The notes beneath the pieces are model-generated. The model ran no database searches, was not told the DNA's origin, and saw only the letters and a list, made by a program, of their open reading frames with translations. Both the position numbers and the translations under genes were made by a program. 43,160 nt of DNA, taken from a virus (lineage: Duplodnaviria > Heunggongvirae > Uroviricota > Caudoviricetes). Where the stretch lies: positions 1 through 43,160 of IMG/VR virus record IMGVR_UViG_2534681759_000012; one strand, given 5' to 3'. Shown here piece by piece: positions 20,383 through 43,160 of the stretch (position 1 is the first letter of the stretch; each line of letters begins with the position of its first letter).

Positions 20383-22329
<1,947 letters not shown>

Positions 22330-22336
22330 ATTGACA

Positions 22337-40672: not shown

Positions 40673-40817
40673 TGTGGCCTATATGTGTTAATTGCAGACG
40701 GATGTGCCTATCTGGATGGTGCCGAAAGTGCGACAAATGCACGAAGCAAAGACAATAACAATCCTCGCACTCGCGGGGATTTCTTTTATCTGAACTCGCT
40801 ACGGCGAGTTTTGTTTT

Positions 40818-41036
40818 ATGGAGATTATTATGATTTTAACAATTAAGCAAATTCACGAATTGGCAATTTTTGCAGGCATGTCATGCAACACACCTGAAGA
40901 AGCTCAGGTGGAAGCTAAAACAGAAATCACGATAGATTCTGGTGATATTCATGATGAAGTAGGATGTGTGATTTATTCAGGTCTACGTGCTCATATTACT
41001 GAATACCCTGAAGAGGGGTACATCGCATTGGAATAG
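40818..41036 (+). CDS. Hypothetical protein (72 aa)
   Basis: ORF preceded by a plausible RBS (GGAGA); acidic; no family recognised. Confidence 0.4.
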   Translation: MEIIMILTIKQIHELAIFAGMSCNTPEEAQVEAKTEITIDSGDIHDEVGCVIYSGLRAHITEYPEEGYIALE

Positions 41037-41182
41037 CTACCGGAGTAACCATGGAATCACGCCGCCTCACACTCGATGAGGCATTTTCATTTATCAAGAT
41101 ATCCAGACCAACCATCGCCGCATCAATGCGGTTTTTTATTGCCTGATTTGCAGGTTCGATTCCATATTCGGAGATAGCACTC

Positions 41183-41383
41183 ATGCAACACGAACTACAA
41201 CCTGATTCACTGGTTGATTTGAAATTCATCATGGCTGATACTGGCTTTGGTAAAACCTTCATCTATGACCGGATTAAGTCCGGCGACCTGCCAAAAGCCA
41301 AAGTTATCCACGGGCGAGCAAGATGGTTATATCGTGACCATTGTGAATTCAAAAATAAGCTCTTAAGCCGCGCTAATGGGTAA
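41183..41383 (+). CDS. xis: Excisionase / AlpA-family DNA-binding protein
   Basis: 66-aa ORF with AlpA/Xis-type HTH signature, last phage gene before the att core. Confidence 0.7.
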   Translation: MQHELQPDSLVDLKFIMADTGFGKTFIYDRIKSGDLPKAKVIHGRARWLYRDHCEFKNKLLSRANG

Positions 41384-41456
41384 AATAGCGGGTAAAATAT
41401 TTTTCACATCTAAAAAACACCATTCCAATCAATCCCCTGCCGCTTCAAGTAGATGT

Positions 41457-41471
41457 CTGCAGGGGACACCA
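41457..41471 (+). other. Prophage att core: 15-bp copy of the argW tRNA-Arg 3' end (attR)
   Basis: CTGCAGGGGACACCA matches the 3' acceptor-stem end of argW as recalled; no upstream T-arm, so a partial copy typical of the distal att site. Confidence 0.65.
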
Positions 41472-41863
41472 GATACCCTTCAAACGAAATCTACCTTCAC
41501 CCCGTAAAAGATGGGTTTGGCAGCACACTTGCCTTATATCTACTCATTTTTACTGCAACAGGTTGAAATCTCAGCACTGTCAGAAAGCGCTGATGACTAA
41601 ACAGCCCTGGGCCGGGCGATGTAACCATCACACAGAATCCTGATAGCGAAATATGGCGTGACTCGATACTTCACTCCGCAATGCATTCCTTGATGAATTC
41701 GCAGGACCGTGATACACGGGACAGGTCACTGAATGACGACAATGTCCTGGAAATCAGCGAACCGCGCATCTGAAGTACATTTGAGCGACTGTACCAGAAC
41801 ATGAATGAGGCGTTTGGATTAGGCGATTATTAGCAGGGCTAAGCATTTTACTATTATTATTTT

Positions 41864-41904
41864 CCGGTTGAGGGATATAGAGCTATCGACAACAACCGGA
41901 AAAA
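41864..41904. terminator. Candidate bidirectional terminator downstream of the permease gene
   Basis: Inverted repeat CCGGTTG...CAACCGG flanked by T-run and A-run just 3' of the minus-strand permease stop; the loop is long, so confidence is low. Confidence 0.3.
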
Positions 41905-41912
41905 GTTTACGT

Positions 41913-43160
41913 CTATATTGCTGAAGGTACAGGCGTTTCCATAACTATTTGCTCGCGTTTTTTACTCAAGAAGAAAATGCCAAATAGCAACATCAGGCAG
42001 ACAATACCCGAAATTGCGAAGAAAACTGTCTGGTAGCCTGCGTGGTCAAAGAGTATCCCAGTCGGCGTTGAAAGCAGCACAATCCCAAGCGAACTGGCAA
42101 TTTGAAAACCAATCAGAAAGATCGTCGACGACAGGCGCTTATCAAAGTTTGCCACGCTGTATTTGAAGACGGATATGACACAAAGTGGAACCTCAATGGC
42201 ATGTAACAACTTCACTAATGAAATAATCCAGGGGTTAACGAACAGCGCGCAGGAAAGGATACGCAACGCCATAATCACAACTCCGATAAGTAATGCATTT
42301 TTTGGCCCTACCCGATTCACAAAGAAAGGAATAATCGCCATGCACAGCGCTTCGAGTACCACCTGGAATGAGTTGAGATAACCATACAGGCGCGTTCCTA
42401 CATCGTGTGATTCGAATAAACCTGCATAAAAGACAGGAAAAAGTTGTTGATCAAAAATGTTATAGAAAGACCACGTCCCCACAATAAATATGACGAAAAC
42501 CCAGAAGTTTCGATCCTTGAAAACTGCGATAAAATCCTCTTTTTTTACCCCTCCCGCATCTGCCGCTACGCACTGGTGATCCTTATCTTTAAAACGCATG
42601 TTGATCATCATAAATACAGCGCCAAATAGCGAGACCAACCAGAAGTTGATATGGGGACTGATACTAAAAAATATGCCGGCAAAGAACGCGCCAATAGCAT
42701 AGCCAAAAGATCCCCAGGCGCGCGCTGTTCCATATTCGAAATGAAAATTTCGCGCCATTTTTTCGGTGAAGCTATCAAGCAAACCGCATCCCGCCAGATA
42801 CCCCAAGCCAAAAAATAGCGCCCCCAGAATTAGACCTACAGAAAAATTGCTTTGCAGTAACGGTTCATAAACGTAAATCATAAACGGTCCGGTCAAGACC
42901 AGGATGAAACTCATACACCAGATGAGCGGTTTCTTCAGACCGAGTTTATCCTGAACGATGCCGTAGAACATCATAAATAGAATGCTGGTAAACTGGTTGA
43001 CCGAATAAAGTGTACCTAATTCCGTCCCTGTCAACCCTAGATGTCCTTTCAGCCAAATAGCGTATAACGACCACCACAGCGACCAGGAAATAAAAAAGAG
43101 AAATGAGTAACTGGATGCAAAACGATAGTACGCATTTCTGAATGGAATATTCAGTGCCAT
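41913..43160 (-). CDS. cscB: Host LacY-family (oligosaccharide:H+ symporter) permease, CscB-like sucrose permease
   Basis: 415-aa 12-TM MFS protein with LacY-like N-terminus (SVNQFTSILFMMFYGIVQDKLGLKKPLIW versus LacY ...[22 protein letters not shown]); ordinary GC; outside the prophage; start codon at the window end. Confidence 0.8.
   Translation of the reverse strand: MALNIPFRNAYYRFASSYSFLFFISWSLWWSLYAIWLKGHLGLTGTELGTLYSVNQFTSILFMMFYGIVQDKLGLKKPLIWCMSFILVLTGPFMIYVYEPLLQSNFSVGLILGALFFGLGYLAGCGLLDSFTEKMARNFHFEYGTARAWGSFGYAIGAFFAGIFFSISPHINFWLVSLFGAVFMMINMRFKDKDHQCVAADAGGVKKEDFIAVFKDRNFWVFVIFIVGTWSFYNIFDQQLFPVFYAGLFESHDVGTRLYGYLNSFQVVLEALCMAIIPFFVNRVGPKNALLIGVVIMALRILSCALFVNPWIISLVKLLHAIEVPLCVISVFKYSVANFDKRLSSTIFLIGFQIASSLGIVLLSTPTGILFDHAGYQTVFFAISGIVCLMLLFGIFFLSKKREQIVMETPVPSAI

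Follow-up and report, generated by a model that had tools for sequence, protein, structure and literature searches.

Right prophage end and attR

The window analyzed here is a stretch of 43,160 nucleotides from a tailed-phage record (Caudoviricetes; IMG/VR record IMGVR_UViG_2534681759_000012). At its right end torI, the last phage gene, is followed by a 73-bp P arm with two putative arm-type repeats. [quoted passage not shown] The integrase gene intS lies at the opposite end. The following features were found, with all coordinates referring to the window.

1-1152 (+): intS, integrase of 383 aa; left prophage end, the window opens at its ATG
1567-2892 (+): Wzy-like 'O-antigen polymerase' gene, 441-aa membrane protein; presumed serotype-conversion moron beside int
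2949-4988 (-): P22-type tailspike gene; Pfam Head_binding (E=1.4e-64) and a pectate-lyase-like domain
20383-22336: complete IS100 (IS21 family), 1954 bp; istA 20469-21491, istB 21488-22270
41117-41138 (+): intrinsic-terminator-like hairpin with T run, directly upstream of the torI leader (terminator scan)
41148-41163 (+): second argW piece, TTGCAGGTTCGATTCC (argW nt 46-61, T-arm), 16 of 16 nt identical (exact-match scan)
41183-41383 (+): torI, excisionase (recombination directionality factor, RDF) of 66 aa; last phage gene
41378-41386 and 41390-41398 (+): two direct GGGTAAAAT repeats, the first overlapping the torI stop codon
41433-41440 (+): TCCCCTGC, inverted copy of GCAGGGGA of the core (41459-41466), 18 nt away
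41457-41471 (+): attR core, 15-bp copy of the argW 3′ end; strand-exchange site and right prophage limit
41472-43160: bacterial DNA (B′ arm, then cscB at 41913-43160 on the - strand), contiguous with argW in unoccupied genomes

The names intS and torI are those used by RefSeq in relatives. IntS carries the Pfam domains Arm-DNA-bind_3, Phage_int_M and Phage_integrase, which identifies it as a tyrosine integrase with an N-terminal arm-binding domain, and it is identical to IntS of E. coli K-12 at 379 of 385 aligned positions (98%). The torI product is identical in 66 of 66 residues to the 'Tor inhibition protein' of PDB entry 1Z4H; HkaC of HK620 and P18 of Sf6 have likewise been reported to be identical to TorI, the RDF of KplE1 (PMC3509656). 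In the preliminary description the last phage gene before the 15-bp argW copy had been called an AlpA-type xis. The position of the gene and the core at 41457-41471 were confirmed, but the family assignment was not: TorI reached 12.7 bits against Pfam Phage_AlpA (PF05930; cut-off 21, E=0.12) and 16.9 bits against HTH_17 (cut-off 27). TorI is a winged-helix RDF in function but, judged by these profiles, not a member of the AlpA family by sequence.

A hairpin equivalent to that at 41117-41138 is also present upstream of torI in HK620, Sf6 and other genera. A sigma-70 scan of the region upstream of torI revealed no promoter, only terminator-like hairpins. Four such hairpins on the + strand lie within the 420 bp before torI (40760-41138), compared to 1.0 expected for the whole scanned region. 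This run suggests that, barring antitermination, transcription of the early-left operon does not reach torI. Enterobacterial-type TorI modules with the same leader and 85-92% amino-acid identity were also found in two metagenome-assembled (MAG) contigs labelled Actinomycetes and Parachlamydiaceae (L012 and L029); these labels probably reflect mis-binning or contamination.

The attR core CTGCAGGGGACACCA corresponds to nt 61-75 of the E. coli tRNA-Arg(CCU) gene argW. It occurs as a single exact copy at 41457-41471 on the + strand and is the sole match in the window even with two mismatches allowed. ARAGORN detected no tRNA gene in the window, and an Rfam E-value search of positions 40900-41700 recovered no RNA family, tRNA-like or otherwise, apart from a single chance miRNA match (E=8.6). 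Exact matches to argW of at least 15 nt were obtained in 2 of 300 Markov shuffles of the window and matches of at least 16 nt in none of the 300. The 15-mer by itself is therefore moderately unlikely (about 0.01), and its location is decisive. We joined yfdC-argW from a relative in silico to window positions 41472-41800, and this attB was contiguous with 100% identity in unoccupied E. coli genomes, with a query coverage of at least 80% in 1470 genomes. Since the DNA from 41472 rightward follows argW in empty sites, the right boundary of the prophage lies exactly at 41471. The gene at 41913-43160 on the - strand in the adjoining bacterial DNA is annotated as oligosaccharide MFS transporter or cscB.

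The argW 3′-end core, which reads CTGCAGGGGACACCA(T) in the KplE1/HK620/Sf6-type module, was thus present as the 15-nt CTGCAGGGGACACCA at the junction of phage and chromosome downstream of the RDF gene. The identity comprises 15 bp here, 16 bp in K-12 (KplE1) and 17 bp in Kapi1; it stops at 15 bp here because bacterial DNA of the csc type rather than the dsdC type follows the core and begins with a G. Among the homologous loci examined, 18, which represent more than ten genera, have the core at a distance of 65-74 nt from xis. At the attR sites of four TorI homologues (L009, L012, L020 and L028), the identity to the argW 3′ end stops early, at the junctions TGCAGGGGACA/ATC, ...ACA/TAT, TGCAGGGGG/CAA and TGCAGGGGA/ATG. 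Should these be genuine junctions, e.g., at secondary sites, strand exchange would fall within the leftmost 9-11 nt of the core.

The two GGGTAAAAT repeats of the P arm are probably arm-type sites of IntS. The motif has four matches in the window compared to 0.62 expected, two of them within 41378-41398, and in attP of HK620 copies of it in both orientations surround the promoter and start codon of intS. These copies agree with the TAAA-containing arm-type sites described by Panis et al. (2010), who reported IntS sites with a conserved TAAA in the P′ arm (PMC2951348). From its inverted relationship to GCAGGGGA, TCCCCTGC is possibly a core-type integrase site. In the homologous locus of Rouxiella both arms are altered together, CCCCTACA occurring with TGTAGGGG, and this paired change suggests that the arms either function together as core-type sites of the integrase or form a structure. 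The attR substrate of published in vitro excision assays comprises 135 bp, starting at a primer in the last 20 nt region of torI (PMC3509656), and corresponds to window positions 41357 to ~41490. A small ORF annotated across attP in HK620 (hkaB) and Sf6 (gene 17) corresponds to 41376-41510 and begins within the torI stop region. As it crosses the core into bacterial DNA in the prophage, integration gives it a different 3′ end; it is unlikely to be a genuine gene.

Left end, circular gene order and phage type

Because the window starts at the int ATG, the intS promoter, the P′ arm and attL lie outside of it, and the presence of argW and the core next to int in exactly this genome is judged from near-identical relatives. 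Contig L033 matches window positions 1-6892 with 99.9% identity (6 mismatches, 1 gap) and contains an intact tRNA-Arg(CCT) gene, whose last 15 nt equal the core and which ends 161 bp upstream of the int ATG. In four further contigs (L001, L031, L032 and L034) tRNA-Arg(CCT) likewise ends 161 bp before int, and in all five the attL region upstream of int contains GTTCG, GTCCG and GATCG motifs as well as TTGACA. The best matches among 5,426 complete E. coli genomes are 98% identical, and four prophages with 98% identity possess argW, the core and the P′ arm upstream of int in the same manner as L033. The complete order argW-intS-O-antigen polymerase-tailspike ... torI-cscB is seen in the one from E. 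coli O114:H49 strain 90-9280. The intact argW with a matching core that had been predicted upstream of int was hence found in L033 and in the 98%-identical relatives at a distance of 161 bp, and the core matches argW rather than a different tRNA, being equal to the last 15 nt of tRNA-Arg(CCT) in these relatives.

An attP was then assembled in silico from window positions 41101-41471, the 161-bp P′ arm of a relative and window positions 1-300. It was contiguous at 96.6-97.6% identity in 15 records of packaged phages, among them IME10, HZ41, Sf6, HF4s, N7, Louie, HK620, CurroJimenez, Dewey and HK633, and the attP core is annotated at the matching position in the HK620 and Sf6 records. In the free phage attP is thus located between the RDF gene and int. 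The annotated order in Sf6 is gene 18 (TorI homologue), attP core, gene 16 (int), gene 15 (oac) and gene 14 (tailspike), which agrees with the circular order xis-attP-int-conversion gene-tailspike proposed in the preliminary description. Its placement of int at the opposite end beside a conversion gene was borne out by intS and the Wzy-like gene, both on the + strand, and its comparison to the K-12 remnant CPS-53 rather than to P22 proved appropriate: the order in K-12 is argW-intS-gtr...torI-pawZ, where pawZ is the annotated equivalent copy of the core, whereas that of P22 is xis-int-attP-gtrABC-tailspike. A lambda/P22-type cassette was not found, as the neighbour of int is the Wzy-like gene and the sole RDF gene is located 40 kb away at the other end.

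Two other explanations of the right end were considered. The 15-mer might be a chance match and the real prophage limit lie elsewhere, for which the two window shuffles with an equally long exact argW match could be cited. This is extremely improbable, as the DNA from 41472 onward follows argW uninterrupted in unoccupied genomes, the DNA to the left runs on into int in free phages, and the distance of the core to xis is kept in 18 homologous loci of more than ten genera; a chance origin of the core was ruled out by the contiguity of both the unoccupied-site attB and the free-phage attP. Alternatively, the window might contain tandem or composite elements, with the torI-attR end derived from an older remnant and not from the phage that supplied int. 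The argW locus is a hot spot, and the recombination module behaves as a mosaic unit whose edge lies near 41127: the majority of phage matches to the in-silico attP begin at query position 28, where Sf6 has an annotated 'boundary sequence'. We nevertheless consider such an origin highly unlikely, because there is no internal copy of the core even at two mismatches, the gene order from int to torI is that of one P22-like genome, and packaged phages show a contiguous torI-attP-int arrangement. With a second core absent from the window, the tandem or composite prophage was rejected.

The body of the prophage is P22-like (Lederbergvirus). It contains a set of head, portal, ejection-protein and tailspike genes, in agreement with the annotation of a 98%-identical relative, and 71% of window positions 3000-25000 align to phage IME10 with 95.9% identity. 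Against TIGR04370, the profile for oligosaccharide repeat unit polymerase, the Wzy-like protein scored 33.2 bits and missed the cut-off of 40. Homologues bear the name O-antigen polymerase, and the family is small (21 clusters at E≤1e-5). The gene has a GC content of 33% compared to 47% for the window, and gave no match in a tblastn search of 50,697 phage records; of 5,426 complete E. coli genomes, only 4 combine it with the int and tailspike found here. It lies between int and the tailspike gene and, as a presumed serotype-conversion cargo, is unusual for a P22-like phage. The IS100 copy is bounded by terminal inverted repeats of 28 nt, with a target duplication of 5 bp (GCAAG), and disrupts a DUF2829-family gene located between the lysis and packaging modules. 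In the 98%-identical relative L002 the element recurs with 99.95% identity, inserted elsewhere and in reverse orientation. The insertion leaves the recombination module untouched but shows some decay of the prophage.

Taken together, a complete prophage of the HK620/Sf6/IME10 type (P22-like, Lederbergvirus) with a KplE1-type recombination module has very probably inserted at the 3′ end of argW, and positions 41183-41471 form its torI-attR end. This is the best explanation for the identical TorI, the 98% identity of IntS, the single core at the boundary, argW in the attL of relatives, the contiguous attP and the P22-like structural genes.

A copy of the argW T-arm in the torI leader

The preliminary description had missed a second piece of argW. 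The 16-mer TTGCAGGTTCGATTCC lies 20 nt upstream of the torI ATG, just past the terminator-like hairpin, and exact argW matches of this length or more were absent from all 300 shuffles. In E. coli it is collinear with the core on the same strand, lies 293 bp from it and abuts it in tRNA coordinates, so that torI and the P arm (293 bp) are located between adjoining parts of the last 30 nt of argW. The copy lies outside the published 135-bp in vitro attR (PMC3509656). A full-text literature search for the sequence of the 16-mer found no paper.

We compared the loci of TorI homologues from 24 species. The element GGTTCGATT(C/T)C was present in Escherichia, Enterobacter, Citrobacter, Serratia, two Pantoea, two Edwardsiella and two MAG contigs, and in 11 of the 12 loci with the element its distance from the ATG is 29-31 nt, Serratia having 36 nt. 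An alignment of nine loci from several enterobacterial genera shows no change in GGTTCGATT, whereas the flanks and the first torI codons vary. The element is missing from the remaining homologous loci (~40%) and from Klebsiella phage Chronis. About 11 nt downstream a second, TorI-like pentamer follows, which reads ATTCG in E. coli, GTTCG in Enterobacter and P. stewartii and GTCCG in Edwardsiella. The exact abutment with the core is specific to E. coli, because the T-arm match extends to CCTG in Serratia and Pantoea. As their copy overlaps the core by 3 nt, the idea of an exact insertion of the xis cassette into a 30-nt tRNA segment was weakened. RNAalifold applied to nine torI leaders predicted only a 4-bp UUCC/GGAG helix (-0.86 kcal/mol) with no compensatory changes, and a conserved RNA structure or T-arm hairpin was dropped, being supported by neither RNAalifold nor Rfam.

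Three readings of the element can be put forward. The one we regard as most likely, though it is a possibility rather than an expectation, is that the T-arm copy serves as a DNA operator in the torI leader bound by TorI and/or the core-binding domain of IntS, which would tie expression of the RDF to the recombination proteins. It would account for the invariance of GGTTCGATT in nine loci in which even the first torI codons have changed, for the nearly fixed spacing to the ATG, for the second pentamer in several versions of the leader and for a location outside the minimal in vitro attR. The element also matches the published motifs of TorI sites (GTTCG, GATCG and GTCCG), and PtorI was called uncharacterised in 2010 (PMC2951348). 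Its absence from ~40% of the homologous loci and from phage Chronis, a conserved block longer than the TorI pentamer and the lack of a predicted sigma-70 promoter at the element speak against an operator. Alternatively, the copy might be a functionless scar of a longer, ancestral argW-derived attP or of a duplicated B-type half-site, and could then record the event by which xis and the P arm were separated from int by the crossover site. The collinear arrangement of nt 46-61 and nt 61-75 in E. coli and the rarity of a 16-nt exact match fit a relic, but the overlap with the core in Serratia and Pantoea restricts the abutment to E. coli, and invariance across genera despite diverged flanks points to selection rather than to a neutral scar, so that we consider this origin unlikely.

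A third reading follows the annotations of HK620 and Sf6, by which the region might be pI, the 'integration' promoter activated by cII. The HK620 record has a promoter and a cII-binding site overlapping the start of the element, pI of Sf6 was assigned by homology, and TTGCCTGATTTGC resembles TTGC-N-TTGC. The canonical spacing of the lambda cII site is N6, however, whereas the spacing read from the sequence is N5, and the second TTGC is lost in the Citrobacter and MAG homologues while GGTTCGATT is retained. A transcript from pI would moreover co-express the RDF with int, counter to integration, the pI annotation is older than the identification of HkaC as RDF, and the promoter scan was empty at the element. 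We therefore regard a pI function as quite unlikely. Returning to the operator, a tentative proposal is that the T-arm copy mimics an attB-side binding site, through which TorI and/or IntS may control production of the excision factor.

Relation to known modules and proposed excision mechanism

The split layout of int and xis has already been described for HK620, Sf6, Kapi1 and K-12 KplE1 (CPS-53), and the present case is a new instance. Pick et al. (2022) reported that attP lies between int and xis in Kapi1, Sf6, HK620 and KplE1, so that the two genes come to lie at opposite prophage ends (PMC8787464). As this layout is published (Panis et al., 2010, PMC2951348; Panis et al., 2012, PMC3509656; Pick et al., 2022), its novelty is low. 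The likeness to KplE1 extends to an identical TorI, the 98% identity of IntS, the core and the arm-type repeats; in both, int lies beside argW and no gene separates torI from the argW 3′-end copy (pawZ in K-12). In contrast, KplE1 is a 10-kb remnant with gtrABS beside int, whereas the window contains a full-length P22-like genome with the Wzy-like gene instead.

HK620, Sf6, IME10, HZ41 and Kapi1 are Lederbergvirus-like and integrate into argW. The torI-attP-int junction is ~97% identical in IME10, HZ41, Sf6 and HK620, and the order RDF-attP-int-conversion gene-tailspike is that of Sf6; the conversion gene is oac in Sf6, unknown in Kapi1 and Wzy-like here. From all five phages the prophage differs by its tailspike and by the IS100 insertion. 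With lambda and P22 the module shares a tyrosine integrase, arm-type and core-type sites, a small winged-helix RDF and IHF dependence, and with P22 also a tRNA target. The order in P22, however, places both genes at one prophage end, where they are co-transcribed from pL, whereas here attP separates int and xis, and attL contains the int promoter (PMC2951348). Panis et al. (2010) discussed the satellite phage P4 (int, vis) and P2/186 (int, cox) as the closest parallels in regulation (PMC2951348). In these phages transcription of integrase and RDF is likewise uncoupled and the integrase negatively autoregulated, but the proteins, targets and gene order differ.

The KplE1 module has been studied experimentally with respect to excision in vivo and in vitro, the binding sites of TorI and IntS and the 135-bp attR (PMC2951348, PMC3509656), and TorI-dependent excision by IntS is known from experiments on KplE1 and HK620 substrates (PMC2951348, PMC3509656). 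In KplE1, TorI binds five sites in the P′ arm containing GTTCG, GATCG or GTCCG, the IntS promoter is located inside attL and repressed by IntS and TorI, and excision requires IntS, TorI and IHF (PMC2951348). By analogy, a promoter within attL would drive steady, low-level synthesis of IntS in the present prophage, held down by IntS itself. Production of TorI would trigger excision through its binding to sites in the P′ arm of attL, and IntS, TorI and IHF would recombine attL with attR inside the 15-bp identity. The resulting circle would have the order torI-attP-intS-wzy-like gene-tailspike, with attP between torI and intS. Integration would be the reverse reaction and restore the intact tRNA.

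Since int and the RDF gene are not co-transcribed, excision is governed mainly by the supply of the RDF (PMC2951348). The separation of int and xis in the published module thus places the int promoter inside attL and leaves excision mainly to RDF expression. The present analysis fixes the right boundary of the prophage (41471) and its identity and, by analogy to KplE1, indicates the likely excision mechanism. The T-arm copy could also mark how xis came to lie across attP from int. If it does mimic an attB-side site, it would represent a control point of excision in this phage family that was uncharacterised as of 2010, and the conserved T-arm-like element in the torI leader could be the missing regulator site for RDF expression.
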